Below, in pieces: positions 30,780 to 62,150 of a stretch of DNA of 64,000 bases; position 1 is the first letter of the stretch; each line of letters begins with the position of its first letter. The position numbers and the translations under genes were made by a program. The notes beneath the pieces were generated by a model. It was not told where the DNA came from. It saw only the letters and a list, made by a program, of their open reading frames with translations, and did no database searches. This DNA is from a virus. The DNA is taken from positions 1-64,000 of the IMG/VR virus record IMGVR_UViG_3300016471_000517, one strand, 5' to 3'.

Positions 30780-30852
30780 GGGTTCGTAGCGCAATCGGTA
30801 GCGCAGTAGACTTTTAATCTATTGGTTGTGGGTTCAAGTCCCACCGGACCCA
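30780..30852 (+). tRNA. tRNA-Lys(UUU)
   Basis: Cloverleaf; GTAGA-CTTTTAA-TCTAT arm; GTTCAAG T-loop; promoter TTGACA(30742)/TAGAAT. Confidence 0.95.
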
Positions 30853-30854
30853 TT

Positions 30855-31127
30855 ATGACAGACCCACTTCATTTCGATCCGCAAATCTTCGCACTTCAGA
30901 TGTACGACCGCGTCAACATCGTCGCAGACCTCATCGTGGAGCATTGGTTGGAAGGCAACGCCAATCCCCCGAAGGAACTGATGGATGCCTACTTCGACGC
31001 GGTGGACGCAGCCCAACTCGCTATCAATGGCAACCGACTGCATGAGTCCGTAGTTCGACCCAACGGAGAGTTCTACGAAGAGATTCATGCCAAGTTTGGA
31101 CTTGACAAGGGGCCACTTCTGAAGTAG
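30855..31127 (+). CDS. hypothetical protein
   Basis: ATG 2 nt after tRNA-Lys; GC-biased codons. Confidence 0.6.
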   Translation: MTDPLHFDPQIFALQMYDRVNIVADLIVEHWLEGNANPPKELMDAYFDAVDAAQLAINGNRLHESVVRPNGEFYEEIHAKFGLDKGPLLK

Positions 31128-31138
31128 AATGATCCCAC

Positions 31139-31211
31139 GGCACGGTAGACCAATGGCAGAGTCAATTGACTCAAAATCAATCAAGTGTGGGTTCGAGTCC
31201 CACCCGTGCTA
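31139..31211 (+). tRNA. tRNA-Leu(CAA) lacking the long variable arm
   Basis: ATTGA-CTCAAAA-TCAAT arm, 5-nt variable loop, GTTCGAG; promoter TTGACA(31102)/TAGAAT. Confidence 0.85.
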
Positions 31212-31218
31212 TTACCGA

Positions 31219-31301
31219 GATGGATCTTCTTCAAGACCATCCAAGAAGGAAGGGCCAACGAGCCGGAAACCGTTTACGGTAGACCGTAGATTAGCCCTTC
31301 C
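31219..31301 (+). ncRNA. putative structured RNA between tRNA-Leu and tRNA-Arg
   Basis: GATGG/CCATC stem whose loop can pair with AAGAAGG; GGAAGGGC/GCCCTTCC stem enclosing a hairpin. Confidence 0.4.
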
Positions 31302-31305
31302 GATT

Positions 31306-31379
31306 GTTCCCGTAGCCCAACCGGATAGAGCAGCCGCCTTCTAAGCGGCAGGTTACAGGTTCGAGTCCTGTCGGGAACG
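31306..31379 (+). tRNA. tRNA-Arg(UCU)
   Basis: Cloverleaf; GCCGC-CTTCTAA-GCGGC arm. Confidence 0.95.
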
Positions 31380-31411
31380 TTTGACAAGAAAGAAAAAGGT
31401 GGTACAATGTA

Positions 31412-31515
31412 TCCCAACTTGATTACTATTTTATAAAGTTTGGTGGTTTACAAAAACCACACAGAGGCATTCTGCGAATGCACGGTTGGGAACTAGCCGT
31501 AAAATTAGTTTCCCA
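31412..31515 (+). ncRNA. putative structured leader RNA of tRNA-Ile
   Basis: Follows promoter TTGACA(31381)/TACAAT(31403); two hairpins plus a pseudoknot-compatible segment. Confidence 0.4.
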
Positions 31516-31516
31516 C

Positions 31517-31592
31517 GGAAGGGTGGCTGAAAAGTAGTTAGAGCGCATGCCTTATAAGCGTGAATATGTGGGTGCAACTCCCGCCCCTTCCA
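31517..31592 (+). tRNA. tRNA-Ile(UAU)
   Basis: GGAAGGG/CCCTTCC acceptor; CATGC-CTTATAA-GCGTG arm; variant T-loop TGCAACT. Confidence 0.8.
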
Positions 31593-31651
31593 CTAAACTT
31601 TTTTCCGTCCGATTGCTTGACAAGACCCCAAACAGAAGGTACAATAGAAAC

Positions 31652-31933
31652 ATGAATATCGACTTCAACACCATGGCCATCGTCGTTCTTTCCGCCTTCT
31701 CTGCCTTCTTCGGCATCGGCTACATTCGTGCCCGCATTGCTGACAAGTTTTCCACCCTTCGTGAGGAAATGCAGAGCAATGCGCGAGAGTTCTACGCAGA
31801 ACAGGATCGAATCTACCAGCGCATCAACCGCCTTGAGGAGAGGGTTGAGAGCATGACCACTTACAGTTCTCACAAGCGGTACACCAACGAGAAGCCCATG
31901 CACGACAAGAACTACTACAACTCGGAAGTCTGA
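31652..31933 (+). CDS. single-TM coiled-coil protein
   Basis: TTGACA(31617)/TACAAT(31640)-6nt-ATG. Confidence 0.7.
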   Translation: MNIDFNTMAIVVLSAFSAFFGIGYIRARIADKFSTLREEMQSNAREFYAEQDRIYQRINRLEERVESMTTYSSHKRYTNEKPMHDKNYYNSEV

Positions 31934-31956
31934 CCGCTGCGGACTTGCGATTCATA

Positions 31957-31995
31957 CACAGACCCCCTGAGTATTTGCAGGGGGTCTGTTCTTTT
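31957..31995 (+). terminator. intrinsic terminator
   Basis: ACAGACCCCCTG..CAGGGGGTCTGT + TCTTTT. Confidence 0.75.
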
Positions 31996-32085
31996 GACTA
32001 CTATCAAAAAATCGCCGCTTAAAGCGATTTTTTGAGGATGGGGGATATTATTATTCCGGATAGTAGCCCAGGACAACTTATAGGA
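31996..32085. repeat. palindromic element copy 4 + TTATAGGAC box
   Basis: GACTACTATCAAAAAATCGC..GCGATTTTTTGA...CGGATAGTAGCCC. Confidence 0.85.
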
Positions 32086-32145
32086 CCTGAAAAAAGATTT
32101 CTGTCTTTGGTTGACTCGGACCAAACCTTGTGGTAAGATTGGGGC

Positions 32146-33402
32146 ATGAACAGCAACATCGACATTCGCAAGCGCAACTTCCTCAACGCCCTCTGCATCA
32201 TGTACGGAACGCCCACCTGCGTCGGTGACGCCATCTACACCCGTGACCAATGCCTTGAGGCTCTTCGCCGCTGCCATGATGGGGGATTGCAGACCTATAC
32301 CGTCCTCCCGGCTTGGCTGACGCAGGACCAGTCCCGCCGCCAAGGCCGTGGAGTCTACTCCATTCATGAGATGGTCAACGTGGAGATCGAAGAGGACAAG
32401 AATCTTTCAGAAACTTTCGACTCAAACTTGACCGCACCCGAAACTTGTGATACAATGGAACCCATGAACAGCAACGCCTACAACCTCGTCATGCCCGCCA
32501 ACGATGTTTCCCTCGTCCCCGTCAAGAACGACACTTTCGTGCCGTGGGGTCACTACGAGGACATCAACTCCATCCTCGCATCCAAGCAGTTCGCTCCGGT
32601 CTACATCACCGGACTGTCCGGCAACGGCAAGACCACGATGATCGAACAGGTCTGCGCCAACACCGGGCGCGAGTGCATTCGTGTCAACATCACCGCCGAA
32701 ACGGATGAGGATGACCTCATCGGTGGCTTCCGCCTCATCAATGGCGAAACGAAGTTCGTGTTCGGTGGCGTGGTGCAGGCCATGCAGCGTGGGGCCATTC
32801 TGCTCCTTGACGAGATTGACCTCGGAACGGAGCGCATGATGTGCCTTCAGCCCGTGCTTGAGGGCAAGGGCATCTACATCAAGAAGATCGGCGCGTTCGT
32901 CAAGCCCGCTCCCGGCTTCAATGTGGTGGCCACGGCCAACACGAAGGGCAAGGGTGAGTCTGATCGGTTCGTCGGGACTCGCTGCATGAACGAGGCTTTC
33001 CTTGACCGTTTCTCGTACTGGTTTGAGCAGGAGTACGCGGACAAGGCCATCGAAGCCCGCATCATCATTCGCAAGATGAAGGCTTACGGCAAGGAGGACA
33101 AGGACTTCGCCGGATACCTCGTCAAGTGGGCAGAAACGATCCGCTTGGGCTTCAAGGAGGGTGGCTTGGATGACATCATCACGACCCGCCGACTGGAGGA
33201 AGTCTGCAAGGCGTTCGCCATCTTCGGCAACAAGGAGAAGGCCATCCGTCTGACGCTCACGCGGTTCGACGCTGCAACGCAGGAGGCTTTCTTCAACCTC
33301 TACACCAAGATCGACCCCACCATTCTTCCCACCCCGGAGGGGATGAAGGACGAATCTTCATCCGCCAATCACAACACGCCTGCTAACGCAGTTCACGCCT
33401 AA
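32146..33402 (+). CDS. MoxR/CobS-like AAA+ ATPase
   Basis: GLSGNGKT Walker A, RVNITAETDEDDLIGG, LLLDEID, TANTKGKG, NEAFLDRF, TRRL; promoter TTGACT(32111)/TAAGAT. Confidence 0.92.
   Translation: MNSNIDIRKRNFLNALCIMYGTPTCVGDAIYTRDQCLEALRRCHDGGLQTYTVLPAWLTQDQSRRQGRGVYSIHEMVNVEIEEDKNLSETFDSNLTAPETCDTMEPMNSNAYNLVMPANDVSLVPVKNDTFVPWGHYEDINSILASKQFAPVYITGLSGNGKTTMIEQVCANTGRECIRVNITAETDEDDLIGGFRLINGETKFVFGGVVQAMQRGAILLLDEIDLGTERMMCLQPVLEGKGIYIKKIGAFVKPAPGFNVVATANTKGKGESDRFVGTRCMNEAFLDRFSYWFEQEYADKAIEARIIIRKMKAYGKEDKDFAGYLVKWAETIRLGFKEGGLDDIITTRRLEEVCKAFAIFGNKEKAIRLTLTRFDAATQEAFFNLYTKIDPTILPTPEGMKDESSSANHNTPANAVHA
32428..32456 (+). promoter_or_regulatory. internal promoter giving an in-frame start at 32464
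   Basis: TTGACC-17-TACAAT-7nt-ATG, in frame (codon 107). Confidence 0.7.
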
Positions 33403-33420
33403 CAAAGAAAGAGAAAAAAA

Positions 33421-33651
33421 ATGCCATACCTCAACAAGCGCAATCGTTTCGTCGCAGCCGCCAAGAACTACGCGGAGAACAGTCCGCTCCTTCAGGGCGA
33501 CTTCAGCAAGTTCACCAAGCACGATCTTCTTCAGATCGCGCAGAGCATCAACATGAAGGGTGTTCCGACTTGGGTGCTGAAGGAGTACCGTAGCGCGGTG
33601 AGTCAGAGGGCTTACGATCTGTCCTCACTCATCAACCCCGTGACCGTCTGA
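33421..33651 (+). CDS. standalone paralog of the AAA N-terminal domain
   Basis: KRNRFV..Y..FTK.DL..PTWV..R..R.Y.L resembles KRNFL..Y..YTRDQ..PAWL..RRQGRGVYSI. Confidence 0.65.
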   Translation: MPYLNKRNRFVAAAKNYAENSPLLQGDFSKFTKHDLLQIAQSINMKGVPTWVLKEYRSAVSQRAYDLSSLINPVTV

Positions 33652-33660
33652 TGCTGTTCA

Positions 33661-33690
33661 TGCCCCGGCCCCCACAAGGGGGCCGGGGCA
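33661..33690 (+). terminator. GC hairpin
   Basis: TGCCCCGGCCCCC-ACAA-GGGGGCCGGGGCA. Confidence 0.7.
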
Positions 33691-33699
33691 GCAGGTGTC

Positions 33700-33808
33700 G
33701 GACTACTATCCGAGGCCCCGCTAAAGGGCCGAGGACTCGCAGAACTTTATTATTTTTGGATGGTGCCGGATAGTAGTCCCCCCCGGACCAGCTCGAACGT
33801 TACCGGAC
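33700..33808. repeat. palindromic element copy 5 + TTACCGGAC box
   Basis: GGACTACTATCCGAGGCCC..GGGCC...CGGATAGTAGTCC. Confidence 0.85.
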
Positions 33809-33866
33809 GCAAAAAAGATTTTCCATTGCGCTTGACCTGACCCCGAACTTGTGGTAAGATTACAGC

Positions 33867-36071
33867 ATGAACACCTCTCTCTCCATCTTCGCCCGCGCTC
33901 TCGCCACCGAAAACCTTTCTTTCTCCTTTGACGCGGAGGCTCCCACGGCATCGTTCGATGTCAAGACCCGCCACCTCGTCATGCCCGTGTGGAATGTCTC
34001 CGACACCCTTCAGACCATGCTCGTGGCTCACGAGATCAGCCATGCCCTGTGGACTCCCTACGAGCGTAGCGAGGAGTTGATGAAGCAGGCGGAGGCTGAT
34101 GGGTTCGTCGCCAAGTTGCTGCACCGCATCTGCAATGTCATCGAAGATGTCCGCATCGAGAAGATGATGAAGGCGAAGTACCCCGGTACTCGTCGGGACT
34201 TCTTCTTGGGCTACAAGGAGGTCGTGGACAGCGACCTGTTCAAGTTCAGCGAGATGGACATTGCGAAGGTCGGACTCATCAACCGCATGAACATTCACTT
34301 CAAGTGGGGCATTCCCGGCTTTCTGAATGTGAATCTTTCTGACGAGGAGCAGGGCATTGCGGACCTGATCGACGCGGTGCAGACCTTTGACGAGGCTTTC
34401 CAGTTGGCGAAGGCTCTCTACAAGCATCCGTCGATGGACGAGATGCGGAAGAAGTACGAGGAGCAGCAGCAGAATGGTTCCGGCAAGGGCGATCCTTCCG
34501 ATGCCAAGCGTGGCAAGGAGCAGACCGAAGGGCTTGGCATGATCGACATGGAGGGTGGGTTCGTTCGCAAGACGGGTGAAACTTTCACCGCGACCACGCT
34601 CACCATTTCTCCGATTCAGAATGTTTCGGATCAGATCATCACGACCGACGATCTTCTTTCGGAGTTTGAGCAGCAGTCTCACCTCCCGCTCACCATCACC
34701 TCCTACCGGGAGTTCGTGAAGGATTCCGATTCCTTCGTTCGCCAGTTGGTTGCCCAGTTTGAGCGTCGCAAGGCGGCTGACGAGATCCGGCGTGAGCGTC
34801 CCAAGCAGACCGGGATGCTCAACCTTGACCGCCTGCACCAGTACCGGACGCATGACGATATCTTCCTGTCGAAGATCATCAAGCAGGACGGCAAGAACCA
34901 CGGGATCTGCTTCTTCCTTGATTGCAGCGGTTCGATGGGGAACACCATTTCGGATTGCTTCCTTCAGATTCTTCAGTTGGTTTGGTTCTGCGAGAAGGCG
35001 AAGATTCCCTTTGAGGTGTTTGGTTTCACCGAAATGGGCATGATGGGCGAGCGTGGCAGGATTGATTCGGAGACTCTCCGCGCAATGATTGCGAAGGGCG
35101 ACAACAGCCCCTACCAGTCGCAATACGCTCCCAAGTTTGTGAATCTTCGTCCGAACAGCCTGATGTACGGTGGGTGCAAGTTGATTCAGTTGGCATCCTC
35201 GTCGGACGATGCGGCCAAGCGTGAACGGCTCCTCGCCTTTCTCTACGAGGCCATTGTCATGAAGGTGCGGAATCGCGTGTTCTCGCTTGGTTCGACTCCG
35301 ACCGTGGAGGCCATGATGATCGGAAGCCAGTTCATGCAGAAGTGGGTGGCCGACAAAAAGATTCAGATTCCGACCGTCATGGTCGTTACGGACGGTCAGC
35401 CCAACGGAGTCTACTTCCAGTCCGAACACATGAGAAGTGGGGGGGATAGCGTTCCCTACACCGCGATTGGTGGGACTTCCCTCACCGTGAACAACGAGAT
35501 TCTTCAGCAGGTCACTCGCGTCGATACGGTGGCCAACCGTGGAATGTCGATGGGCAATGTCGTGGTGTCGGTCATCCTTGAGGATCTTCGCAAGACTCTG
35601 AACGCCCGCACCGTGGGAATGTTCGTGGGTAGCAAGACTTTCAGCGCGAATATGTTCTGCTCGTTCTGCGTCACGACCGACGAATCGGAGAAGATTCATG
35701 AGGAGGAGCAGGAGCAGTATCGCAAGGGCAACTACAACTCTAGTGGTTCCTACGAGTGCAGCCCCCGGTTCATTGCGATCAAGGAAGTCTACAATCGGGA
35801 AGGGTGCATCATTCTGCCGAAGTCTCTGTACCCCGGCTATGACGGCTTCTTCCTCATCAAGACTCCCAAGATCGTCAAGGACGAGGATGCCATCGTGGAC
35901 TCCGGTACTTTCACGCGAGTGAAGAACACCTTTGTCAAGACGATGGGGCAGCGTGGATCTAGCCGTGTGTTCCTCACCCGGTATGTGGACATCGTGGCGG
36001 GTCAGCCTCTCAAGGCCGTGGGCGAGGAGGTCTACCGCCTCTCTGCCAACCCTGCCAAGAAAGATAAGTAA
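33867..36071 (+). CDS. CobT-like metallopeptidase-vWA domain protein (AAA partner)
   Basis: TASFDV..R.L..P.W, HEISHALWT, NVIEDVRIEK, DCSGSM MIDAS, STP, VTDG; promoter TTGACC(33832)/TAAGAT. Confidence 0.9.
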   Translation: MNTSLSIFARALATENLSFSFDAEAPTASFDVKTRHLVMPVWNVSDTLQTMLVAHEISHALWTPYERSEELMKQAEADGFVAKLLHRICNVIEDVRIEKMMKAKYPGTRRDFFLGYKEVVDSDLFKFSEMDIAKVGLINRMNIHFKWGIPGFLNVNLSDEEQGIADLIDAVQTFDEAFQLAKALYKHPSMDEMRKKYEEQQQNGSGKGDPSDAKRGKEQTEGLGMIDMEGGFVRKTGETFTATTLTISPIQNVSDQIITTDDLLSEFEQQSHLPLTITSYREFVKDSDSFVRQLVAQFERRKAADEIRRERPKQTGMLNLDRLHQYRTHDDIFLSKIIKQDGKNHGICFFLDCSGSMGNTISDCFLQILQLVWFCEKAKIPFEVFGFTEMGMMGERGRIDSETLRAMIAKGDNSPYQSQYAPKFVNLRPNSLMYGGCKLIQLASSSDDAAKRERLLAFLYEAIVMKVRNRVFSLGSTPTVEAMMIGSQFMQKWVADKKIQIPTVMVVTDGQPNGVYFQSEHMRSGGDSVPYTAIGGTSLTVNNEILQQVTRVDTVANRGMSMGNVVVSVILEDLRKTLNARTVGMFVGSKTFSANMFCSFCVTTDESEKIHEEEQEQYRKGNYNSSGSYECSPRFIAIKEVYNREGCIILPKSLYPGYDGFFLIKTPKIVKDEDAIVDSGTFTRVKNTFVKTMGQRGSSRVFLTRYVDIVAGQPLKAVGEEVYRLSANPAKKDK

Positions 36072-36092
36072 ATCTTTCCAAACATCTTCATG

Positions 36093-36134
36093 CCCACCCA
36101 GGACTGGAAGGAGAGAGCCAGTTCTGGGTGGGTT
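36093..36134 (+). terminator. terminator hairpin
   Basis: CCCACCCAGGACTGG..CCAGTTCTGGGTGGG. Confidence 0.65.
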
Positions 36135-36137
36135 CTT

Positions 36138-36213
36138 ACTACTATCAAAAAACCTTAAGGTTTTTTGAGTTTTCTTGCATTACTTGCGGACATGGCGGAT
36201 AGTAGTCCCGGAC
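36138..36213. repeat. palindromic element copy 6
   Basis: ACTACTATCAAAAAACC-TTAA-GGTTTTTTGA...CGGATAGTAGTCC. Confidence 0.85.
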
Positions 36214-36996: not shown

Positions 36997-37386
36997 TTAT
37001 CCGTAGGTAGGTTGTGCTGGAGGAATCGGAGAAGGCTGTGATTGTTGTCTTTCCCACATTCTTTTATGTTTTTCAAGTAAATTTTTATACCATTGGTATA
37101 ATTGTTCTTCAGACCAGTTCAAATGATCAAATGCACCTCTTTTATATTGTTCTATAAACCAATTTTCCAAAAATCTATAATAATCTTCCCATGTGTCATA
37201 CACGACTGGGGGTGGGGTTGGTGTTGACAGCCTTTGCTTAAGTGCAGGTTGTAGGGTTGTTGGTTGATTGGGTTTGTATATTGGTGCTGGTCCACCGCCC
37301 GGTGGGTTTTCCTTCTCACCAACTACCGCTGTTGAAGTAGATGCCTTTGCATCCTCTTCTCTTAAAAATTCCTTAAATTTTTTCAT
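36997..37386 (-). CDS. putative internal head protein (MKKFKEFLREE leader)
   Basis: T4 CTS-like leader; Pro-rich linker. Confidence 0.7.
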   Translation of the reverse strand: MKKFKEFLREEDAKASTSTAVVGEKENPPGGGPAPIYKPNQPTTLQPALKQRLSTPTPPPVVYDTWEDYYRFLENWFIEQYKRGAFDHLNWSEEQLYQWYKNLLEKHKRMWERQQSQPSPIPPAQPTYG

Positions 37387-37390
37387 AGAC

Positions 37391-38164
37391 TTATGCCTCG
37401 TAAGTTCCAGGATTCACTTGTTGACCGGGTGTTGTGGATTGGCCAGGAAAATATCTGTACCACCAAGGAAGATACGGACTAACATTGTCGTCACGTTGAT
37501 ATGGACCGGGAGTTGGTGCGCCGGGTCGTAGAAAGTCAGGATTAAATGGATTTATACCTTCCCATGTGTTTGGGTTTTGTAAATCAAAATTATAACGAGG
37601 ATCATCTGCTCCACCAAAAGGTGTGCCGGGTGTACCGGGAGTTGGTGGGCCGGGATTCACGTAGTCATCAAAGAGGTCATTAAATCTGTCATACAAATCA
37701 CGCATTCTTTGCGTAAAAGTGTTTACTTGTTCGGGAGTGGCATTTGGATATGTTCGCATAAACCATTGTTGTAATTGAAGGTAAAGTGTCATTGTAAAGC
37801 GTGTATAAACATCCATTCCCCCGCCTGCTCCCGTTGTTGTAACTCCAAAAGTTGTCTCTAACCATTGTATGAATGCGTCCCACGATAAAAGTCCCAACAT
37901 ATCTATTTTTTGTTTAAATCTGTCATACAAATCCTCAATTCTATCATCAACTTCCTCCCAGTCGATTGGCTCGGGTGGTTTATGTGGGTTTTCTGGTTTT
38001 TCTTCTGTTTGAGGTTTGTATGGCCAACCACCCGGAAGTGTGGGTGTGGTTCCAAGTGGACTTCCACCCCCATAGAAAACAGGTGCTGACTGTGCTTTTG
38101 AGGAGCCAGCATCACCGGGTGTAGCGGTCATCTCTTCTCTTAAAAATTCTTTGAAACTTTTCAA
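37391..38164 (-). CDS. putative internal head protein (MKSFKEFLREE leader, TTG start)
   Basis: TTG overlaps the upstream TGA; CTS-like leader. Confidence 0.7.
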   Translation of the reverse strand: MKSFKEFLREEMTATPGDAGSSKAQSAPVFYGGGSPLGTTPTLPGGWPYKPQTEEKPENPHKPPEPIDWEEVDDRIEDLYDRFKQKIDMLGLLSWDAFIQWLETTFGVTTTGAGGGMDVYTRFTMTLYLQLQQWFMRTYPNATPEQVNTFTQRMRDLYDRFNDLFDDYVNPGPPTPGTPGTPFGGADDPRYNFDLQNPNTWEGINPFNPDFLRPGAPTPGPYQRDDNVSPYLPWWYRYFPGQSTTPGQQVNPGTYEA

Positions 38165-38634
38165 TTTACTCTCTCCCACGTTACATTTCCAAATTGGTCT
38201 TGTTGAACTTGCCAAACCTGACCATTATCATCTATGTAAATATCACCAACCTGTGCGGGTGGTTGAGCAAAAATTGTAACTACTCCATCTGAACCTCTAA
38301 CTCTTTTACCCGGAATTCTTGCAGGATATGTGTAGACATTTCCAAATGGAAAATTGAGTTGTTGGTATGTATCCCATATTTTTTTCAATTCAAGATATTT
38401 CTTGTATCTTTGGGCATATTGCTCTTCACTCTCTCCGGGTTGTCTTTTTGGTGGTTCGCCCGGATCTGTTGGCGCACCATATCCTGGTTGGGCTGTTGGT
38501 TTTCTGTATGCGGGTTTTTGTGAAGGAGGTGCAGAATAAACCATGGCCGAACCCATTGTTTTTTCTTGTGTTCCTTTGTCAGTTCCTTTAGAAACTTCAA
38601 TTTCTTCTTTGAGATAATCTTTAAAACTTTTCAT
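38161..38634 (-). CDS. putative internal head protein (MKSFKDYLKEE leader)
   Basis: TAAATA just upstream on minus; CTS-like leader. Confidence 0.7.
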   Translation of the reverse strand: MKSFKDYLKEEIEVSKGTDKGTQEKTMGSAMVYSAPPSQKPAYRKPTAQPGYGAPTDPGEPPKRQPGESEEQYAQRYKKYLELKKIWDTYQQLNFPFGNVYTYPARIPGKRVRGSDGVVTIFAQPPAQVGDIYIDDNGQVWQVQQDQFGNVTWERVN

Positions 38635-38680
38635 ATAGGTATTTAGTTGACTTTTGTCCTTTGGGGTGTATACTATGTCC

Positions 38681-39052
38681 ATGAAACCCGACATTGAGCG
38701 TCTACGGCGTGAGGTTCGCTATCTGCGTAATTGCATCGCAGAGGCGTTCAATGCCCTCCCCACTCTTCCCGGCACGTCGTTGGATAACTGGTGGGTGTTC
38801 AGTCCAATCTGCCGTGCCATTCGTCCCTACAAGGAAATCTATGACGAAGAGTTTGAACCCAAGGCTGTTGTCCGAAAGCGTAAAAAAGTTTCTCAATATT
38901 TGACCGCAGAGATTCTTCCCGGCGAACAGACTGGAGAAAGAAAGCGTCTGCGAGTGGATGAACTTCCACCTCTGCCTGAAGAAACCCCTAGAGTGGGTAA
39001 GCAGGCCACGAAGGTGATGAATAGTTTGGGTATTGGGATTCATATTGATTGA
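38681..39052 (+). CDS. hypothetical early protein
   Basis: TTGACT(38647)/TATACT-6nt-ATG. Confidence 0.65.
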   Translation: MKPDIERLRREVRYLRNCIAEAFNALPTLPGTSLDNWWVFSPICRAIRPYKEIYDEEFEPKAVVRKRKKVSQYLTAEILPGEQTGERKRLRVDELPPLPEETPRVGKQATKVMNSLGIGIHID

Positions 39053-39083
39053 CAACCAACCCAAGAGAGTGTATACTATGAAC

Positions 39084-39314
39084 ATGAACAGCGACGACAT
39101 TCATGAACTGAAGGCAGAGATCGCCCGTCTGAACGCAAAGATTGAAGTCATGCGGGGGGTTCTGTGGGAGTGGAACTGCTCCTCCGGTCCTGTGTGGGAG
39201 TATTACAGACTCAAGCAGGTGGGAGAGAAACAAGAAGATTACGCCTTCCTAGACGAAGATTACGAAGTAGATATGCCCCTCTTTGACGATGTTACTAACT
39301 CCTTTGGAGAATAA
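39084..39314 (+). CDS. hypothetical early protein
   Basis: TTGACA(39049)/TATACT(39072)-6nt-ATG. Confidence 0.65.
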   Translation: MNSDDIHELKAEIARLNAKIEVMRGVLWEWNCSSGPVWEYYRLKQVGEKQEDYAFLDEDYEVDMPLFDDVTNSFGE

Positions 39315-39315
39315 C

Positions 39316-40002
39316 ATGACTACCAAGACTCCTGAAGAACTCCTGAAAGACCTAGACAGCAATGATGTTAATGTCCGCACGGATGCTGCCAGTAATCCAA
39401 GTGCCACTCCTGAAGTCCTCCTGAAGGCTCTGGAGGACGAGCATAAATATGTCCGCTGTGCTGCTGCCGGGAATCCTAATGCCACTCCTGAAATTCTGCG
39501 GAAGGCTCTGGAGGACAAGAATGAATATGTCCGCTCTTGTGCTGCCGAAAATCCCAATGCTACTCCCGAAATGCTGCTGAAGGCTTTGGAGGACAAAGAT
39601 GTCCGCTATGCTGCTACCCAAAATCTCAATGCCACTCCTGAAGTCCTCCTGAAGGCTCTGGAAGACGAGGATTACCATATCCGCTATTATGCTGCCGAAA
39701 ATCCCAATGCTACTCACGAAGTCTTGTTGAAGGCTCTGGAGGACTGGGATTACCGTGTCAGCCTTGCTGCTGCGGGGCATCCCAATGCCACTCCTGAAGT
39801 CCTGCTGAAGGCTCTGAAGGACACGGATTACCGTGTCCGCAAATATGCTGCCGGGAATCCCAATGCTACTCCTGAAATCTTGTTGAAGGCTCTCAGTGAC
39901 AAGGATGAGTTGGTACGCAAATCTGCTCAAGAGAGTTTACAAAAGGATCCCATTCTTCAAATCCAAGTTGCTGCTCTTAGGGCACAATCAACCGAAACGT
40001 AA
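39316..40002 (+). CDS. LRV/HEAT-repeat protein 1
   Basis: 24-aa repeats VRxxAAxNPNATPEVLLKALED; GGAG SD. Confidence 0.9.
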   Translation: MTTKTPEELLKDLDSNDVNVRTDAASNPSATPEVLLKALEDEHKYVRCAAAGNPNATPEILRKALEDKNEYVRSCAAENPNATPEMLLKALEDKDVRYAATQNLNATPEVLLKALEDEDYHIRYYAAENPNATHEVLLKALEDWDYRVSLAAAGHPNATPEVLLKALKDTDYRVRKYAAGNPNATPEILLKALSDKDELVRKSAQESLQKDPILQIQVAALRAQSTET

Positions 40003-40021
40003 GAAAATTAAGGAAAACAAA

Positions 40022-40402
40022 ATGACTACCAAGACTCCTGAACAACTCCTGAAAGACCTAGACAGTAAGGATGTTAAGATCCGCCGTACTGCTGCGGGGC
40101 ATCCCAATGCCACCCCTGAAGTCCTGCTGAAGACTATGAGGGACGAGCATCACTTTGTCCGCCGTGGTGCTGCCCTGAATCCTAATGCTACTCCTGAAGT
40201 CCTGCTGAAGGCAATGAGGGACAAGAATTACATTGTACGCTGGGGTGCTGCCGTGAATCCCAATGCTACTCCACAAATGCTGATGAAGGCTTTGAAAGAC
40301 AAGTATAGGGTTGTCCGCAGCGCTGCTCAAGAAAGGTTGCAAAATGATCCCATTCTTCAACTCCAAGTCGCTGCTCTCAGGGCACAATCAACCGCCTCTT
40401 AA
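40022..40402 (+). CDS. LRV/HEAT-repeat protein 2
   Basis: Same repeat and caps; AAGGA SD. Confidence 0.9.
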   Translation: MTTKTPEQLLKDLDSKDVKIRRTAAGHPNATPEVLLKTMRDEHHFVRRGAALNPNATPEVLLKAMRDKNYIVRWGAAVNPNATPQMLMKALKDKYRVVRSAAQERLQNDPILQLQVAALRAQSTAS

Positions 40403-40421
40403 CAAAATTCGGGCAAACAAC

Positions 40422-40958
40422 ATGGATACCAAGACTCCAGAACAACTCCTGAAAGACCTAGACAGCAATGATCGCGTTGTCCGCTATTGTGCTGCTGCGA
40501 ATCCTAATGCCACTCCCGAAGTCCTGCTGAAGGCTCTGGAGGATGAAGAGGTGGATGTCCGCTGGGAGGCTGCCGGGAATCCTAATGCCACTCCCGAAAT
40601 TTTGCTTAAGGCAATTGGAGACAAGAATTCGGATGTCCGCTATGCTGCTGCCGGGAATCCCAATGCCACTCCCGAAATTTTGCTTAAGGCAATTGGAGAC
40701 AAGAATTCGGATGTCCGCTATAATGCTGCGGAGAATCCCAACGCCACTTCTGAAGTCCTGCTGAAGGCAATTGGAGACAGGTTTGTTAAGATCCGTGAGG
40801 CTGCTGCGTATCATCCCAATGCCACTCCTGAAGTCTTGTTGAAGGCAATTGGAGACAAGAATTCGGATGTTCGCAGCGCTGCTCAAGAGAGTTTACAAAA
40901 CGATCCCATTCTTCAACTCCAAGTTGCTGCTCTCAAGGCTCAAAAAAACGCCTCTTAA
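40422..40958 (+). CDS. LRV/HEAT-repeat protein 3
   Basis: Same repeat; near-exact internal 72-bp duplication. Confidence 0.9.
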   Translation: MDTKTPEQLLKDLDSNDRVVRYCAAANPNATPEVLLKALEDEEVDVRWEAAGNPNATPEILLKAIGDKNSDVRYAAAGNPNATPEILLKAIGDKNSDVRYNAAENPNATSEVLLKAIGDRFVKIREAAAYHPNATPEVLLKAIGDKNSDVRSAAQESLQNDPILQLQVAALKAQKNAS

Positions 40959-40976
40959 GAAAATTAAGGAAACAAA

Positions 40977-41270
40977 ATGGCTACTAAGAAGACCGCAAAG
41001 AACGCTTCAATCACTCTGCACCCCTTGCTCCAAAAGAGAATGGAGTTTTACCAAGAAATGTTTACTTGGTGTATTGAAAACTGGGATAAGTTGCGCAAGT
41101 ATGAAGTAGGCTCCGAAGTTCTCTTTTCCTGTTTCCCTTGGAAATTGCAGCGCGAGTTAGGGGAAACTTATCATATCCGTGGGCGTTTCGATGATGAATG
41201 GCACAAACTGAGGGGGAAGAAAGCAATTACGTTTAAAGATCTTTGTCATCTTTTTTACCTTTGTAAATAA
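40977..41270 (+). CDS. hypothetical protein inserted in the repeat-gene array
   Basis: Shares the AAGGAAACAAAATGGCTAC start context; no repeats. Confidence 0.7.
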   Translation: MATKKTAKNASITLHPLLQKRMEFYQEMFTWCIENWDKLRKYEVGSEVLFSCFPWKLQRELGETYHIRGRFDDEWHKLRGKKAITFKDLCHLFYLCK

Positions 41271-42467: not shown

Positions 42468-42486
42468 AAAATTCGGGAAAACAACA

Positions 42487-42768
42487 ATGATTACCAAGAT
42501 TAAGAACAATACCAAGAAACCGACGAAATATCATTACTTTTTCAATTACAACAGAGGAAACTATTTTCAGATTTCCCATGGATTGGAAAAGCGTTATGGC
42601 AAAATGTTTTATGGTTCGGGAATTCACTTGACAGGGAAGGCGTTTGATATACACTTCTACTGCACTCCGAAGGAGTACAAGCGCATCGTGGCTTGCGCTC
42701 GTCGTCGCTACGGCAAAATCAAGAGCATCACTCGTTATACCGAAGAAGCCCTTTACGGAGATGACTGA
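42487..42768 (+). CDS. hypothetical basic protein
   Basis: ORF after the array with the same upstream context as 40422. Confidence 0.6.
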   Translation: MITKIKNNTKKPTKYHYFFNYNRGNYFQISHGLEKRYGKMFYGSGIHLTGKAFDIHFYCTPKEYKRIVACARRRYGKIKSITRYTEEALYGDD

Positions 42769-42769
42769 T

Positions 42770-42870: not shown

Positions 42871-42882
42871 AAAGGAGATACC

Positions 42883-51892: not shown

Positions 51893-52198
51893 TAAAAATC
51901 CCGGTTTTTCAGATGCGGGAAAACCGGGAAACCCCACTGCTTTAAGCAGCCATCCGCATTGGTGCGGCTTTTATATTTGCAACTGTTTATTTACGACACT
52001 TGTTACCCGTGTCGGGTATCTCCTTCTTCATTACTCTGCGCCAATCGAAGCCATTTCAGCCCCTTAAATGCCCCGCTGCAACGAGGACTTGAATCGCCAT
52101 TCCCAGAGTTTGCAGAGGTTCTGGGTTAGGCTAATGGAGCCGAGGGGAATCGAACCCCTGTCTTGTTCGCATTTCAATCCGATATCAACAATACCGAT
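51893..52198 (-). ncRNA. ssrA: circularly permuted (two-piece) tmRNA
   Basis: 3' acceptor piece GACAGGGGTTCGATTCCCCTCGGCTCCA (ends 52135) precedes 5' piece GGGGCTGAAATGGCTTCGA (starts 52063); G3:U70 pair; tag ANIKAAPMRMAA* at 51980-51942. Confidence 0.9.
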
Positions 52199-52816: not shown

Positions 52817-52898
52817 TGCGAGCAGGAGGATTCGAACCTTCGTAGGCTATGCCATCTGATTTACAGTCAGACCTCGTTGACCACTTGAGTATACTCGC
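52817..52898 (-). tRNA. tRNA-Tyr(GUA)
   Basis: TCTGA-CTGTAAA-TCAGA arm; long variable arm. Confidence 0.92.
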
Positions 52899-58722: not shown

Positions 58723-58929
58723 ATGCAAAAAAATCATCGGTGTCTTGTGACCAATCAAAGGTTAGATCCCGGAGATTGGTATTGGTACTCATGGGAAATG
58801 GAAGCTCCCATATCTGCTGCTGGCATGGCAGAACTGGAACAAAGAAGATTTGATCCAGATGATGAATTTGCTAAAATTATTTGGGAAGAATGGGTCTGGT
58901 CTAAAGAAATAGGCCAACCAGACCTTTAA
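58723..58929 (+). CDS. hypothetical protein
   Basis: Trp-rich ORF in the operon. Confidence 0.55.
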   Translation: MQKNHRCLVTNQRLDPGDWYWYSWEMEAPISAAGMAELEQRRFDPDDEFAKIIWEEWVWSKEIGQPDL

Positions 58930-61173
58930 TTATCTTATAATTTTCATTCTTCTTATTTCTTCTGGTGTCCATTCTTCATCGGGAAGTTTCAAAGGAGCGT
59001 TCATAGTTCCTTCATTATCTGGTTCAAGATCTTTTGGTCTTCTTGATGTTGTTGCGAACATCGGTCTTCCCAACATTCTATCTCTCAATGGATCAAGCAC
59101 ATCTGCATATCGAGTCATTGGATTGATAAATCTTGGATCCTCCTTACCAGTGTAAGGTCTAACATTTCCAGGAGCATTTACAATTCTCATATTTGAGATA
59201 TCAATGTTTGGAGCTTGTGGTCTGGAAGAAATTTCCGGTTTTGTTGAACCAAATTTTGTAAATTTTCTACCCAAAACTCTATCCAAATATTGACCAACAT
59301 TTCCTGGAAGTTCTGATTTTGTATTTACAGTTGAGCCGCCACCCATTTCTGATTGTATAATTCCAGTTTCTATTTCTGGTCCATATTCATTCGCTTCCTT
59401 TGCCGCTTGTTCATCTTTATCAAGCAACTGATTTAACATTTTGGAAACTCTATTTAAATATGCTGTTTCTGCTGGTGTATTTCCACTTTGATCTTCACTA
59501 AATCTATTTACTTTTTTACCACCAATTCCCAAAAATCCACCTTCAGTTTTTTGTCTTCCACCCATAAATTTAGCAGTTTCTCCCCTAGCTAGAGCAGTTG
59601 CTGCCATAAACAATTTTTCTTTTTCTGAAAGTTTATTCCATTCTTCGGATTCAGGGACTACATAGCCTTTAAATTGAGGTGTGTCGGGAGTAATTTTTAT
59701 TTGTTGAATCTGATCTGTCTCTGCCTTTGTCTCTGTATCTGTTTCTGGAAAAATTGGGAATTGACCTCTTTCCTGGTCTGGAATTGGAACGGCGCCAGGA
59801 ACATCAGTGGTTCCATAAAGTTTTTCCCGCATCGCATTTGGAGTTGTTTGGGCTAAATTCTTTTTAATAAAATCAGATACTTTTGGTCCAACGGAAGATA
59901 TTACATTTTCAGCAGCTTTATTTAAAGTTTGTCTGAAAGGAATCCCACCCTCTTGTTTTGGAAAAATTGGGAATTGACCTCTTTCTACAGCAAAAGGATC
60001 TGGAACATATTTCCCCATTCCAGGTGGTTCGTTTATTACACGACTTCCATCTGTATCCAAGTCATATTGGAGAGCATCCATGTAATCCTGTCTTGCATTT
60101 GAATCTTTTTTTTCCGGTTCCTGTTCTCTTCGAACTATTTCTTGAGCTTGTCGGTTTATCTCGTCATCCTGTGCGGCCAGTTCTCTGTCAATTCTTTCAG
60201 CTGATTGCCTTTGAGCTGTTCTTTCTCTTGATCCTGGAGTTGTTCTTGCTAGTTGACCTGTCTCGGTGTCATACCAAGCATCACTAGTTCCAAATTTTGG
60301 AATGTCCGTGGGTCTTTGACGCATTGTATAGAATTGTGCACTATTTTGTGCTGGCACTTCACCGGGCCCTGAAGTGGCTGACCAATTTGGTGCTCCTCTG
60401 GAAGCTAAATCAAAAAATATTCTTTGGTCTTCTCTGTTAAGAGCATCGTAATCACGACCTGTTGCAGTCTTAAAATCACCATGAGTAACTTGATATACTG
60501 GACTTATTCTTGAACCTGCTTTTCTTTCTTTTCTTTCAGTATCTACCGCTGCTGATTTTTCTCTTGACAAAACAAAAGCTGTTTCAATTTCTTCTGGTGA
60601 AAATTTTTTGCCTCGGGGATTGAGTTTAGAGCCACTAGTTTGAGTTTCAAATGCTTTTTTTGCGGCGTCATATGCTTCTTGTTCTGCTCCCGGTTTTGGA
60701 GTTGTTTTAAACATTCCAAGAGGAAGATTTGATAATTGTGTTCCAGATGCAACTCTCTGTCTTCCTTGAGCTAATTTTTTACTTTCTTCAGCTTTAATTC
60801 TTCCGTAACCACTTTGCGAGAGTTGATTTTCAAGTTCTGCAATTTTAGATTCAACACCCGGATCCACTCCAGCTCCTTGGGCTTGTCTTGCAGCAACTCT
60901 TCTCATTCTGTTTAAAGTTTCTTGAGCATCTTTTTGTCTTGCCTTTACCATTCCACCCAATCTTTGATCAGTATAAGAAGAATAATCGGGTTGATATGCC
61001 GGAGTTGGATTTCCGGTATTATATCCAATAGATCCACCTGTAGTTCCACTTGGAAACATTGGTCTCATATTAGGTGAACCAAAATAACCAGGCGTCCCAT
61101 ATCCTGTTCCAGGAGCATCAAAGGGAGTATCTTCAATGATATAAGAAACTAAAAAATCAGAAATTTTTTTCAT
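58930..61173 (-). CDS. 747-aa low-complexity putative internal/ejected protein
   Basis: MKKISDFLVSYIIE leader; internal repeat ERGQFPIFP x2. Confidence 0.65.
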   Translation of the reverse strand: MKKISDFLVSYIIEDTPFDAPGTGYGTPGYFGSPNMRPMFPSGTTGGSIGYNTGNPTPAYQPDYSSYTDQRLGGMVKARQKDAQETLNRMRRVAARQAQGAGVDPGVESKIAELENQLSQSGYGRIKAEESKKLAQGRQRVASGTQLSNLPLGMFKTTPKPGAEQEAYDAAKKAFETQTSGSKLNPRGKKFSPEEIETAFVLSREKSAAVDTERKERKAGSRISPVYQVTHGDFKTATGRDYDALNREDQRIFFDLASRGAPNWSATSGPGEVPAQNSAQFYTMRQRPTDIPKFGTSDAWYDTETGQLARTTPGSRERTAQRQSAERIDRELAAQDDEINRQAQEIVRREQEPEKKDSNARQDYMDALQYDLDTDGSRVINEPPGMGKYVPDPFAVERGQFPIFPKQEGGIPFRQTLNKAAENVISSVGPKVSDFIKKNLAQTTPNAMREKLYGTTDVPGAVPIPDQERGQFPIFPETDTETKAETDQIQQIKITPDTPQFKGYVVPESEEWNKLSEKEKLFMAATALARGETAKFMGGRQKTEGGFLGIGGKKVNRFSEDQSGNTPAETAYLNRVSKMLNQLLDKDEQAAKEANEYGPEIETGIIQSEMGGGSTVNTKSELPGNVGQYLDRVLGRKFTKFGSTKPEISSRPQAPNIDISNMRIVNAPGNVRPYTGKEDPRFINPMTRYADVLDPLRDRMLGRPMFATTSRRPKDLEPDNEGTMNAPLKLPDEEWTPEEIRRMKIIR

Positions 61174-61175
61174 TT

Positions 61176-61901
61176 TTATTTCTTTCCTCGGAGCATTCGA
61201 TCAATTATAGATTCTATATTTTCTTCTCTTGCTTCCCTACCAGCTTCATACTCTTGCTCCGAAGCAGCTTGTCTGGCTGCGATTCTTGCAGCTCTGCTAG
61301 CTTCTTTATAAGACTGTCTCGCATGCTCTGATCGGGCTTGTGCGGCCAAAGAATAAGTTGGAAGTGGACTTGAAGGATCGCCTATTCCGGGATCGGCCAT
61401 TTCACCGTCTTCCGCATCCATTTCAACTTCATTTGCATTGCCTACAGGAGCAGCATCAACTGGTCCCATTGCTCTGGCTCTTTGAGCCGATAATTCTGCT
61501 CTTTTCATTCTTGCTATTTGGGCATAAACACCAGGATCACCGCCAGCCAAAGAAACTGAAGTTGGTGTAACCTTCTCATAACCTGGAACACCGCCCTGCA
61601 TCTTGTTTTGAATTTCTGCGGCCATTGCTGCTTTCAAAGAACCTTCTCTTGCAGCATCTACTTGTTTACCACTCTCCCCATAAATTGGAAGAACATCATC
61701 ACCTTGCATAGTTCTTGGTGCTGGTGGTTGCATTTGCCCAGAAAGAGCAGCTTGTCTTTGTGGATCTGTAATTCTTCTTGCTTTTTGTTCATTTAGTTGA
61801 ACTCTTTGAGTATAAATTTTTGACTCAGAGAGCAATTTTGCTTTCATGGCAGCTGAATTTAATTCATGGATCCATGAATAACTATTAATTTTCTTTTTCA
61901 T
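61176..61901 (-). CDS. putative internal virion protein
   Basis: TAAATA upstream; LSE/LNE sites. Confidence 0.65.
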   Translation of the reverse strand: MKKKINSYSWIHELNSAAMKAKLLSESKIYTQRVQLNEQKARRITDPQRQAALSGQMQPPAPRTMQGDDVLPIYGESGKQVDAAREGSLKAAMAAEIQNKMQGGVPGYEKVTPTSVSLAGGDPGVYAQIARMKRAELSAQRARAMGPVDAAPVGNANEVEMDAEDGEMADPGIGDPSSPLPTYSLAAQARSEHARQSYKEASRAARIAARQAASEQEYEAGREAREENIESIIDRMLRGKK

Positions 61902-61950
61902 AAAAATATTTAGATTTGACTTAACTTTAAAAAGGATTATAATTAGATAT

Positions 61951-62073
61951 ATGGATTTAAATGGACAAGCAGGAAAGGGTGATACTTATCGCCCGGTAGA
62001 TTATAAAGTTTGGTGTAAAAATTTTGATGCAATTTTTAATAAGAAAAAACCAAAAAAGAAGAAGAAAAAATAA
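61951..62073 (+). CDS. small basic protein (GKG..RP..NFD.IF family)
   Basis: Manual ORF MDLNGQAGKGDTYRPVDYKVWCKNFDAIF; TTGACT/TATAAT promoter. Confidence 0.65.
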   Translation: MDLNGQAGKGDTYRPVDYKVWCKNFDAIFNKKKPKKKKKK

Positions 62074-62078
62074 AATTT

Positions 62079-62150
62079 GCGGGTGTAACTCAATGGCAGA
62101 GTGCAAGCCTTCCAAGCTTGATGTTGAGGGTTCGACCCCCTTCACCCGCT
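62079..62150 (+). tRNA. tRNA-Gly(UCC)
   Basis: GCGGGTG/CACCCGC acceptor; CAAGC-CTTCCAA-GCTTG arm. Confidence 0.95.

Follow-up and report, generated by a model that had tools for sequence, protein, structure and literature searches.

Two codon dialects track promoter class in a freshwater T4-like phage with a conserved, GC-rich and putatively early gene island

The DNA considered here, called the window throughout, is a 64,000-nucleotide (nt) stretch at the start of a single contig that measures 117,060 bp and has 37.8% GC, IMG/VR virus record IMGVR_UViG_3300016471_000517. It carries an 11-kb GC-rich island (25340-36200), taken to hold the immediate-early genes, in which GC content is 50-65% in 500-nt windows versus 30-38% in the flanks. 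The genes of this island almost entirely avoid A-ending codons, the remaining genes favor them, and the difference follows the type of promoter that precedes a gene. Furthermore, the codons that become common outside the island are largely those read by tRNAs that the phage itself encodes, and the arrangement is conserved in related contigs. The interpretation developed below, to which we would assign roughly even chances, is that, in a clade of freshwater T4-like phages, selection keeps two codon dialects whose use parallels the order in which genes are expressed.

The codon split was assessed by comparing 13 island genes (2197 codons) with 89 other genes (24607 codons). The latter represent a late/other class that is defined by exclusion, comprising open reading frames (ORFs) of at least 100 amino acids (aa) that lie outside 25-47 kb and are not replication genes; ORFs shorter than 100 aa were excluded from this class and from the replication class. 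The gene list was built by length and by the G+C fraction at third codon positions (GC3), island starts were set by promoters, and temporal classes were assigned from promoter motif and gene function. In the island, AAA supplies 3% of Lys codons (82% in the other genes), AGA 2% of Arg codons (67%), ATA 0% of Ile codons (41%), CAA 9% of Gln codons (83%), CCA 5% of Pro codons (59%), and GAA 34% of Glu codons (86%). AAA, AGA, ATA, TTA, GTA, ACA, and CTA each make up only 0-3% of the codons for their amino acid in the island, where third positions are mostly C. Island genes have GC3 values of 0.70-0.90 and a fraction of A at third positions (A3) of 0.03-0.18, and the per-gene median GC3 is 0.78 in the island versus 0.22 in the others (Mann-Whitney p=6.6e-9). 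An original prediction, made from the letters of the window, had described an island dialect of the AAG/CGC/ATC/GAG type and a late dialect of the AAA/AGA/ATA/GAA type, and the split proves to be stronger than was stated there.

Between the two extremes lies a graded series. The values of A3, T3 (the corresponding fraction for T), and median GC3 are 0.056, 0.154, and 0.78 for the 13 island genes; 0.183, 0.331, and 0.48 for 10 genes in a block at 38.7-44.8 kb; 0.281, 0.346, and 0.36 for 11 replication and nucleotide genes; and 0.395, 0.386, and 0.22 for the 89 other ORFs of at least 100 aa. Every step between classes is significant for A3 (p=2e-4, 6e-4, and 2e-5) and for GC3, whereas T3 distinguishes just the island from the remaining classes. 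Thus, the gradient is mainly one of A-ending codons, and it runs up to the structural genes, which are located behind late promoters of the T4 type. The original prediction had called a "gp32" gene and the genes from 38.7 to 47 kb intermediate. This description holds for the plus-strand block at 38647-44817 (GC3 0.46-0.59, A3 0.14-0.26), which holds genes for LRV/HEAT-repeat proteins and is opened by promoters at 38647 (16-nt spacer, TATACT) and 39049 (17-nt spacer, TATACT); a shoulder of 41-50% GC continues from the island to ~44 kb. It fails for the genes at 45-47 kb (GC3 0.23-0.39). The "gp32" ORF (37391-38215, minus strand, GC3 0.31) is one of three AT-rich minus-strand ORFs at 36997-38634 (GC3 0.25-0.31) located behind a late-type TAAATA motif at 38645, and its label had to be abandoned because its product has no match in Pfam, PHROGs, NCBIfam, or PDB sequences.

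Codon usage was also compared directly with promoter class, which was a check named by the original prediction and one that agrees with it, with exceptions given below. Genes directly behind a sigma70-type promoter have a median GC3 of 0.77 (n=21, a number that counts a nested start at 32464 in the cobS-like gene beside the full gene), versus 0.22 for genes behind TAAATA (n=25; p=2.7e-8). Sigma70-like sites are abundant at 24.8-39.5 kb, where 34 are found compared to 9.0 +/- 2.7 in shuffled sequences. Seventeen near-consensus, host-type promoters are present in the island, 14 of which start leaderless genes while three precede tRNA genes. A single leftward representative (TTGACA-N17-TATCAT, 25996-26024, minus strand) has an ATG 6 nt past its -10 element, and this ATG opens a leaderless 92-aa ORF that runs from 25989 down to 25711 on the minus strand. 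The sixteen rightward promoters (26061-33860, plus strand) combine TTGAC[ACT] or TTGAAA with TACAAT, TAGAAT, or TAAGAT and have a 17-nt spacer (N17) in 15 instances and a 16-nt spacer (N16) in one; 13 are followed by an ATG 6-7 nt past the -10 element, and three lie ahead of tRNA genes. Among the 14 island promoters that start genes, this distance is 6 nt in 13 and 7 nt in one, so the early mRNAs are predicted to be leaderless. The early promoters also share a AAATCTTTC-like element upstream of the -35 element and GC-rich bases past the -10 element.

A relaxed promoter scan yielded 127 motif matches, most of which are probably chance occurrences in AT-rich DNA, and only promoters with an ATG 4-9 nt past the -10 element that opens an ORF of at least 40 aa were kept from it. 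Outside the island, a second sigma70-like class is found that has a 16-nt spacer, a TATAAT or TATACT element, and AT-rich surroundings. Its members occur at positions 1046, 38647, 53080, 61916, and 62154 of the window and at positions 82232, 86933, 88782, and 116038 of the contig. These N16 promoters precede a helicase gene, an ORF ahead of the polymerase gene, and a GMP-reductase-like gene, as well as replication, nucleotide, and sugar genes, and they may constitute a middle class. The median GC3 of leaderless genes is 0.79 behind N17 promoters (n=16, 14 of them in the island) versus 0.36 behind N16 promoters (n=8).

The late motif TAAATA is present in 35 upstream regions where 4.5 are expected, and CTAAATA is present in 12 where 0.4 are expected; the full TATAAATA octamer has only 14 occurrences and was not found to be enriched. 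Start codons that open ORFs of 50 aa or more are most often located 5-7 nt past TAAATA (22 of 171 sites), with examples at 50302, 51014, 56272, 61912, 65044, and 76834. Given this peak, late mRNAs are likely to be leaderless in many cases as well, and most mRNAs of this phage would lack a leader. Some genes keep a Shine-Dalgarno sequence of the AAGGA type, and TAAGGA is enriched 9-fold upstream of genes.

The tRNA genes of the phage match the codons that distinguish the two dialects. ARAGORN and Rfam, which agree in their calls of tRNAs and of transfer-messenger RNA (tmRNA), both recover the nine tRNAs of the original prediction, and its count of seven that read A-ending codons stands, with U at position 34 (U34) in the tRNAs for Lys, Arg, Ile, Pro, Glu, Gln, and Gly. 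Four plus-strand tRNA genes reside in the island. tRNA-Lys(UUU) (30780-30852), the first tRNA with an early promoter, begins 9 nt after a TTGACA-N17-TAGAAT promoter, and a 73-nt tRNA with anticodon CAA that is called Leu (31139-31211) begins 8 nt after another TTGACA-N17-TAGAAT promoter. tRNA-Arg(UCU) (31305-31380) follows tRNA-Leu by 93 nt, and the -35 element of the next promoter (TTGACA-N16-TACAAT, 31381-31408) begins at its 3' end; tRNA-Ile(UAU) (31517-31593) starts 108 nt after that promoter. All four had been placed under early sigma70 promoters, which is accurate for Lys, Leu, and Ile, each with a promoter of its own, but not for Arg, which has none and sits behind Leu.

The remaining tRNA genes of the window encode tRNA-Pro(UGG) (45106-45179, plus strand), located 7 nt after a TAAATA motif, tRNA-Glu(UUC) (45693-45766, plus strand), tRNA-Gln(UUG) (46972-47042, plus strand), tRNA-Tyr(GUA) (52817-52898, minus strand), and tRNA-Gly(UCC) (62079-62150, plus strand), the last of which is flanked by two N16 sigma70-like promoters (61916 and 62154). 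A tenth, tRNA-Asn(GUU), lies beyond the window at 76872-76946 of the contig. A gene for a SpoU-family RNA 2'-O-methyltransferase (46426-46986, plus strand; Pfam PF00588, E=1.4e-22) is situated between those for tRNA-Glu and tRNA-Gln, and its end overlaps the start of the latter. This protein, which scores below every NCBIfam equivalog cut-off, including those for TrmH, TrmL, TrmJ, and RlmB, may modify the phage's own tRNAs.

To relate tRNA supply to codon demand, the 61 sense codons were ranked by how far their use in the late/other class exceeds that in the island. Phage tRNAs read the codons at ranks 1 (AAA), 2 (AAT), 3 (TAT), 5 (ATA), 7 (GAA), 8 (CAA), 10 (CCA), 11 (AGA), 13 (GGA), and 21 (TTG), where AAT and TAT are decoded by wobble through the phage Asn-GUU and Tyr-GUA tRNAs. 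Nine of the 13 most-rising codons are therefore read by phage tRNAs, and the rank sum of 81 was not reached or undercut in any of 100,000 permutations. Taken together, the A-ending codons cognate to the seven U34 tRNAs account for 4.0% of codons in the island, 13.1% in the intermediate block, 18.6% in the replication genes, and 26.0% in the rest. Strongly rising codons for which there is no phage tRNA are TTT, ACA, TTA, GAT, GCA, GTA, and TCA.

The island is not peculiar to a single contig. Among its products are a DUF7178 early protein (27180-27740, plus strand, leaderless start at 27180; Pfam PF23802, E=2.6e-26), a CobS-like AAA+ ATPase (32146-33402, plus strand, leaderless, GC3 0.78; Pfam AAA_5), and a CobT/vWA-like "peptidase" (33867-36071, plus strand, leaderless, GC3 0.77; phrog_459, E=6e-118). 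An IMG/VR search with the cobS-like protein returned 14 contigs at 75-84% identity and one that holds a gene fragment. A similar search with the DUF7178 protein returned 21 loci with orthologues that are 46-88% identical, 14 of them on additional contigs, for a total of 29 distinct contigs. The island was found in all 29, with no sign of a patchy distribution. Every one of the 15 cobS-linked loci has 46-66% GC around cobS, and in 14 of these the value falls to 27-45% on at least one flank; an AT-to-GC step is likewise seen in 18 of the 21 DUF7178-linked loci, the other three of which lie entirely in GC-rich DNA. The leaderless promoter design, searched with a strict pattern, recurs in 13 of 15 loci. 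Among relatives whose loci reach that far, the order Lys-Leu-Arg-Ile is conserved just upstream of cobS, with Pro-Glu-Gln 8-10 kb downstream.

Chimeric assembly was entertained as a source of the island and rejected, since single contigs from other samples (for example, L030, L032, L037, and L038) carry it flanked by AT-rich DNA on both sides. The stretch is present in freshwater and lake-water metagenome runs from several studies, and contigs from four runs were compared with it. In run X4, which belongs to another study, none of the listed contigs spans either island border; record 9 fits as far as 25152 and then diverges, and records 13, 14, and 15 overlap by just 16 and 30 nt. Contigs from RNA run X20, mostly 90-95% alike and derived from relatives, fall on parts of the island and on few other bins, but DNA carry-over is possible and such contigs can neither rank genes nor show transcript starts.

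Island orthologues in 14 relatives, whose proteins are 30-85% identical, retain a GC3 of 0.65-0.94. When the cobS codons of 14 genomes are aligned, four-fold degenerate sites are 62% identical on average versus ~36% expected at saturation, and A occupies 2-13% of these sites in all 14 sequences even though about four in ten sites have changed. Because synonymous sites turned over in the relatives while their composition stayed the same, the codon state appears to be maintained rather than transient, and the aligned sequences portray it as a maintained recoding, not as a chimera or a recent import. The nearest matches to the cobS-like protein are CobS proteins from pelagiphages and cyanophages that are T4-like and AT-rich (49-57% identity, 315-334 bits). 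It scores 82 bits against the bacterial CobS equivalog (cut-off 558) and has no relative in 185,579 species genomes in a word-based scan. Over a 267-aa core, G+C at first and second codon positions is 0.51-0.58 and 0.35-0.39 in both the island clade and homologues from ~41% GC DNA. Third positions alone set the clade apart from these AT-richer homologues, with GC3 of 0.69-0.90 versus 0.45-0.55 and A3 of 0.01-0.06 versus 0.10-0.17, and the cobS-like gene thus looks native but recoded at synonymous sites.

One sublineage, L033/L041 (3300042898_003369 and 3300042894_002308), provides a natural variant. Its island has only 46-53% GC. At the four-fold sites of cobS, T rises to as much as 0.38 with A at 0.13, and at all third positions of the cobS core, T is 0.25 and A is 0.06. 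A tRNA-Leu(UAA) replaces the CAA tRNA in this sublineage. Separately, the cobS homologues of L043-L049 (45-58% identical, in uniformly ~41% GC DNA), which supply the GC3 and A3 ranges given above for AT-richer homologues, are GC-richer and A-poorer than their surroundings suggest, and T4-like phages of aquatic habitats may commonly show this trend in a weaker form.

The remainder of the contig encodes a T4-type gene kit at low identity. Its UvsX/RecA is 55% identical to proteins from Methylophilales, Pelagibacter, and Synechococcus myoviruses, and its family-B DNA polymerase shares 41% identity with cyanomyovirus gp43. Other replication genes encode a DnaB-like helicase, primase, the clamp loader gp44/62, and the gp45 sliding clamp (contig 98037-98708; phrog_223, E=8.4e-66), and additional genes specify a gp46/47-like nuclease, class II ribonucleotide reductase, ThyX, RegA, a gp6-like baseplate protein, and a gp55-type late sigma factor (contig 101946-102512; phrog_234 "late sigma transcription factor", E=8.3e-52). 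The closest isolates share just 41-57% identity in core proteins, and most structural ORFs have no Pfam or PHROG match. This combination of a T4-type kit at low identity and structural ORFs without family matches indicates that the phage is a distant, uncultured T4-like lineage. The RegA-type translational repressor (contig 96273-96698; phrog_242, E=1.9e-46) is of separate interest in a phage whose early mRNAs are predicted to be free of leaders. CheckV estimates the contig to be 58% complete.

How might selection maintain two dialects? In the mechanism that we propose, the tRNA pool of the uninfected host, taken as poor in U34 tRNAs, would have to translate the first genes, and selection would keep A-ending codons out of them. 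Four tRNAs for AAA, AGA, AUA, and UUG would be among the first transcripts. These early-made tRNAs, in turn, would raise the capacity to decode AAA, AGA, AUA, and similar codons, on which the A/T-rich middle and late genes would depend. The tRNA supply would then act as a layer alongside the gp55-based transcription cascade rather than as the clock itself, and the island is probably made richer in GC by a second pressure at the level of DNA. That selection acts on codons is suggested by three observations. First, A makes up 24.7% of the non-coding plus strand of the island versus 5.6% of third positions. Second, the island tolerates T-ending codons (15%), which share their G34 tRNAs with codons ending in C. 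Third, L033/L041 gained T without gaining A.

Several points weigh against this interpretation. The expression timing of the gene classes is presumed from promoter motifs and by analogy with T4, and the GC content and tRNA pool of the host are assumed, with the island used as a stand-in for the host; a dependence of late translation on phage tRNAs is likewise presumed. Late genes are already delayed transcriptionally by gp55, gp45, and TAAATA promoters. The genes for tRNA-Pro and for the tmRNA carry late-type motifs. Host tRNAs must decode A-ending codons in any case, because there is no phage tRNA for TTA, ACA, GCA, GTA, or TCA (ranks 9, 6, 14, 15, and 17). Moreover, eight leaderless genes behind host-type N16 promoters are AT-rich (GC3 0.21-0.48), and the sugar genes in the operon behind the TTGACA-N16-TATAAT promoter at 116038 are richer in AT than any others on the contig (GC3 0.09-0.23). 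Finally, non-coding DNA in the island has 52.8% GC compared to 31.7% in the backbone (part of it may be unrecognized coding sequence), promoter spacers have 66% GC in the island compared to 33% outside, and the six bases past the -10 element have 71% compared to 32%. Since GC is raised in non-coding island DNA too, codon selection alone is not the whole explanation.

The original prediction had gone further by proposing that codon bias acts as a timer. We do not take codon bias to be the timer itself, and the interpretation survives only in part. It is favored by the match of codon usage to promoter class, the graded series, the fit between tRNAs and codons, and the presence of four tRNAs in a conserved early island, but the transcriptional delay, the late motifs of tRNA-Pro and the tmRNA, the A-ending codons that lack a phage tRNA, and the GC-rich non-coding DNA all tell against it. 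A tentative and rather doubtful extension would be a clade-wide translational layer of temporal control. Here, selection would keep the early genes free of A-ending codons, the share of such codons would climb stepwise with expression time, and each later class would become efficiently translatable only as early phage U34 tRNAs accumulate, perhaps after modification by the phage SpoU-type methylase. Under this scheme, with almost every mRNA predicted to be leaderless, translation would be tuned at elongation and not at initiation.

An alternative that we regard as unlikely, albeit worth serious thought, is selection on the DNA itself. The segment that host RNA polymerase would have to transcribe unaided might have kept a host-like GC content to evade AT-recognizing silencers of the H-NS/Lsr2/MucR type or AT-targeting nucleases, after which early proteins would neutralize this barrier for the AT-rich remainder, and codon usage would be a by-product. 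Such pressure readily accommodates the raised GC in non-coding DNA, promoter spacers, and the six bases past -10 elements, where no codon is read, as well as the exact coincidence of the island with the N17 host-type promoter cluster and the retention of the feature across the clade. It does not predict a 4.4-fold depletion of A at third positions relative to adjacent non-coding DNA with T tolerated, nor the loss of GC3 to T without a gain of A in L033/L041, and it leaves four rare-codon tRNAs in the island unexplained. In addition, other host-type promoters work in surroundings of 31-33% GC, and no silencer or anti-silencer gene was identified.

A regional bias in mutation or repair is a further alternative: in promoter-bounded cassettes prone to recombination, like those in the variable early regions of T4-type phages, GC-biased gene conversion or some other local bias might push all weakly constrained sites toward G and C. 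Four-fold sites in the island are 77% G+C, non-coding GC is raised as well, and the repeated, near-identical promoters could serve as recombination sites. Gene content between the promoters does vary, with several small ORFs having orthologues in just 0-8 of 22 loci, and segments of the island are missing from, or replaced in, contigs of other samples. We nonetheless judge this explanation improbable. At four-fold sites, C is about twice as frequent as G and A about one-third as frequent as T, which is not expected from a strand-symmetric bias; the gradient extends past the island into replication genes; and cobS and the cobT-like gene have been completely recoded even though their synteny is stable.

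A different possibility concerns only the tRNA half of the observations and is compatible with the other alternatives. The phage tRNAs might mainly replace host tRNAs (Lys-UUU, Tyr-GUA, Glu, Gln, and Arg) that are cleaved by defense nucleases or lost after host shut-off, in which case the link to the codon split would be secondary. One article reports that phage T5 supplies Lys-UUU and Tyr-GUA against the PARIS system and retron Eco7, and it lists host-tRNA depletion and escape from anticodon nucleases as standing hypotheses (PMC13015707). The position of tRNA-Lys(UUU) as the first tRNA behind an early promoter would be in keeping with this role. We consider replacement a poor candidate for the main function, however, because the tRNA set fits codon demand closely, accounting for nine of the top 13 rising codons, and because the targets named in the text consulted do not include Ile-UAU, Pro-UGG, or Gly-UCC (PMC13015707).

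A mosaic origin, in which the island was imported from a GC-rich phage or host and has not yet ameliorated, is very improbable and already disfavored: its atypical composition with sharp borders, the lack of known families for most of its small ORFs, and the presence of one DUF7178 homologue (46% identical) on a 10-kb contig, L150, with ~58% GC throughout would fit an import, but the island occurs throughout the related contigs, orthologues down to 30% identity share its composition, ~38% of cobS four-fold sites have changed without drift to A, and cobS, the sole gene on which a donor was sought, is far from bacterial CobS and nearest to genes of AT-rich T4-like phages, from which it differs in third positions only.

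The preferred reading, with two dialects maintained by selection, can be placed alongside what is known of other phages. Work by Cowe and Sharp in 1991 and by Kunisawa in 1992 reportedly showed that codon usage in T4 differs with expression time and that its tRNA cluster serves late genes, and a study by Bailly-Bechet and colleagues in 2007 is said to have found that phage tRNAs match codons that the phage uses often but its host seldom does. The present phage resembles T4 in its gene kit (UvsX, gp43, gp41, gp44/62, gp45, gp46/47, RegA, and gp55) and in its host-type early and TAAATA-type late promoters, and six tRNA specificities are common to both (Arg-UCU, Gln-UUG, Gly-UCC, an AUA-reading Ile, a Leu, and Pro-UGG). 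It differs from T4 in that its split is far larger (GC3 0.78 vs 0.22) and confined to one 11-kb block of its own composition, and in that its early and late mRNAs are predicted to be mostly leaderless. Arbiol, Comeau, and Krisch reportedly described promoter-bounded early-gene cassettes in variable regions of T4-type phages in 2010, and the many short early genes of the island, each with its own strong host-type promoter, are reminiscent of these. Leaderless transcripts are said by Sevostyanova and colleagues (in 2007) to predominate among the middle and late transcripts of Thermus phage phiYS40, an unrelated phage that nevertheless resembles this one in that start codons coincide with the predicted transcription start, here in both promoter classes.

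Early and late phage genes can use different synonymous codons, and separation was seen in 7 of 14 phages with measured timing according to Mioduser, Goz & Tuller 2017 (PMC5683454). Unlike in those cases, timing is inferred for the clade examined here, the separation is near-complete, and it is conserved in the clade with synonymous turnover. Phage tRNAs match phage-preferred codons, particularly those of late genes, as stated in PMC13015707. Another parallel is offered by Zborowsky, Tahan & Lindell 2025, whose study concerns AT-rich T4-like cyanophages on GC-rich Synechococcus. In these, tRNA availability limits the translation of late proteins, and tRNAs for rare codons (Leu-TAA and Arg-TCT) act as gatekeepers for translating tail, capsid, and packaging proteins (PMC11726456). 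Those cyanophages are likewise AT-rich and T4-like with tRNAs for rare A-ending codons, whereas no GC-rich early block is described in the text consulted (PMC11726456). A cobS and "peptidase" gene pair is common to both. Overall, an early/late codon split accompanied by phage tRNAs is a known phenomenon, of which this phage is an extreme variant. The open-access literature searched yielded no account of a T4-like phage that is AT-rich but has a contiguous and conserved block of early genes recoded to a GC3 of ~0.8.

Ever since tRNAs were discovered in T4, it has been debated whether phage tRNAs and codon bias shape infection or are simply a reflection of base composition, and the evidence consists mostly of weak statistical trends. 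The clade offers a near all-or-none contrast within one genome that maps to promoter classes readable from sequence and is replicated in 29 independent contigs, and the L033/L041 variant separates being GC-rich from being free of A-endings. It is therefore an unusually clean natural case for testing how tRNA supply relates to the timing of viral protein synthesis. As a practical matter, an 11-kb segment of 58% GC in a phage of 35% GC will mislead composition-based tools for host prediction and binning.

Clues to the host are sparse. A cyanobacterial host is doubtful, because psbA (PF00124) was not found in clade record G000 or in five related records (44-76% complete). WhiB (PF02467) was not found in five clade records. 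The GMP-reductase-like protein (1043-2116) is 44-50% identical to products of genes from many Proteobacteria and others, which is uninformative regarding the host, and the ESM Atlas places DUF7178 among viral clusters only. There is no near-identical DNA in the GenBank phage collection, where the sole match is to 45 nt of tRNA-Arg; this segment is 93% identical to Thermus phage phiLo over those 45 nt only.

Additional features of the island genes deserve mention. Most of the small ORFs belong to no known family, and the CobT/vWA-like gene yields tblastn matches to cyanophage "peptidase" genes. An early promoter is nested in-frame within the cobS-like gene (32428-32456), and its ATG at 32464 is predicted to give a 312-aa form that keeps the AAA+ module. 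Early leaderless genes between 26096 and 33880 have similar opening codons (ATG AAC/ACC ACC ACC and so on), which specify MNTT or MTTT. CA-rich sequence past the start codon is reported to favor leaderless translation.

The RNA genes also have unusual properties. A permuted, two-piece tmRNA with tag ANIKAAPMRMAA is encoded at 51942-52195 on the minus strand (77.4 bits vs a gathering score of 47), and it may be expressed late, as its gene begins 5 nt after a TAAATA motif. The CAA tRNAs of the window and of L029-L032, L037, and L040 are 73-75 nt long and are without the long variable arm of bacterial leucine tRNAs; the same position in L033-L036, L038, and L041 holds an 85- to 87-nt form with the arm, two examples of which carry the anticodon UAA. 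AUA is decoded by a tRNA-Ile with a genomic UAU anticodon instead of the usual bacterial CAU/lysidine tRNA, as is true for every one of the 14 related loci in which an Ile tRNA is present. CCA is absent from the sequence of every tRNA gene. Directly 3' of four tRNAs, the sequence TT is followed by ATG (tRNA ends and ATG starts at 30852/30855 for Lys, 45179/45182 for Pro, 45766/45769 for Glu, and, on the minus strand, 52817/52814 for Tyr), and these ATGs open ORFs of 90, 108, 75, and 204 aa, respectively. The same pattern is seen in relatives for Lys (8 of 11), Glu (5 of 10), and Pro (4 of 8). Cleavage at the tRNA 3' end could thus free mRNAs with a 2-nt leader, as in tRNA punctuation.

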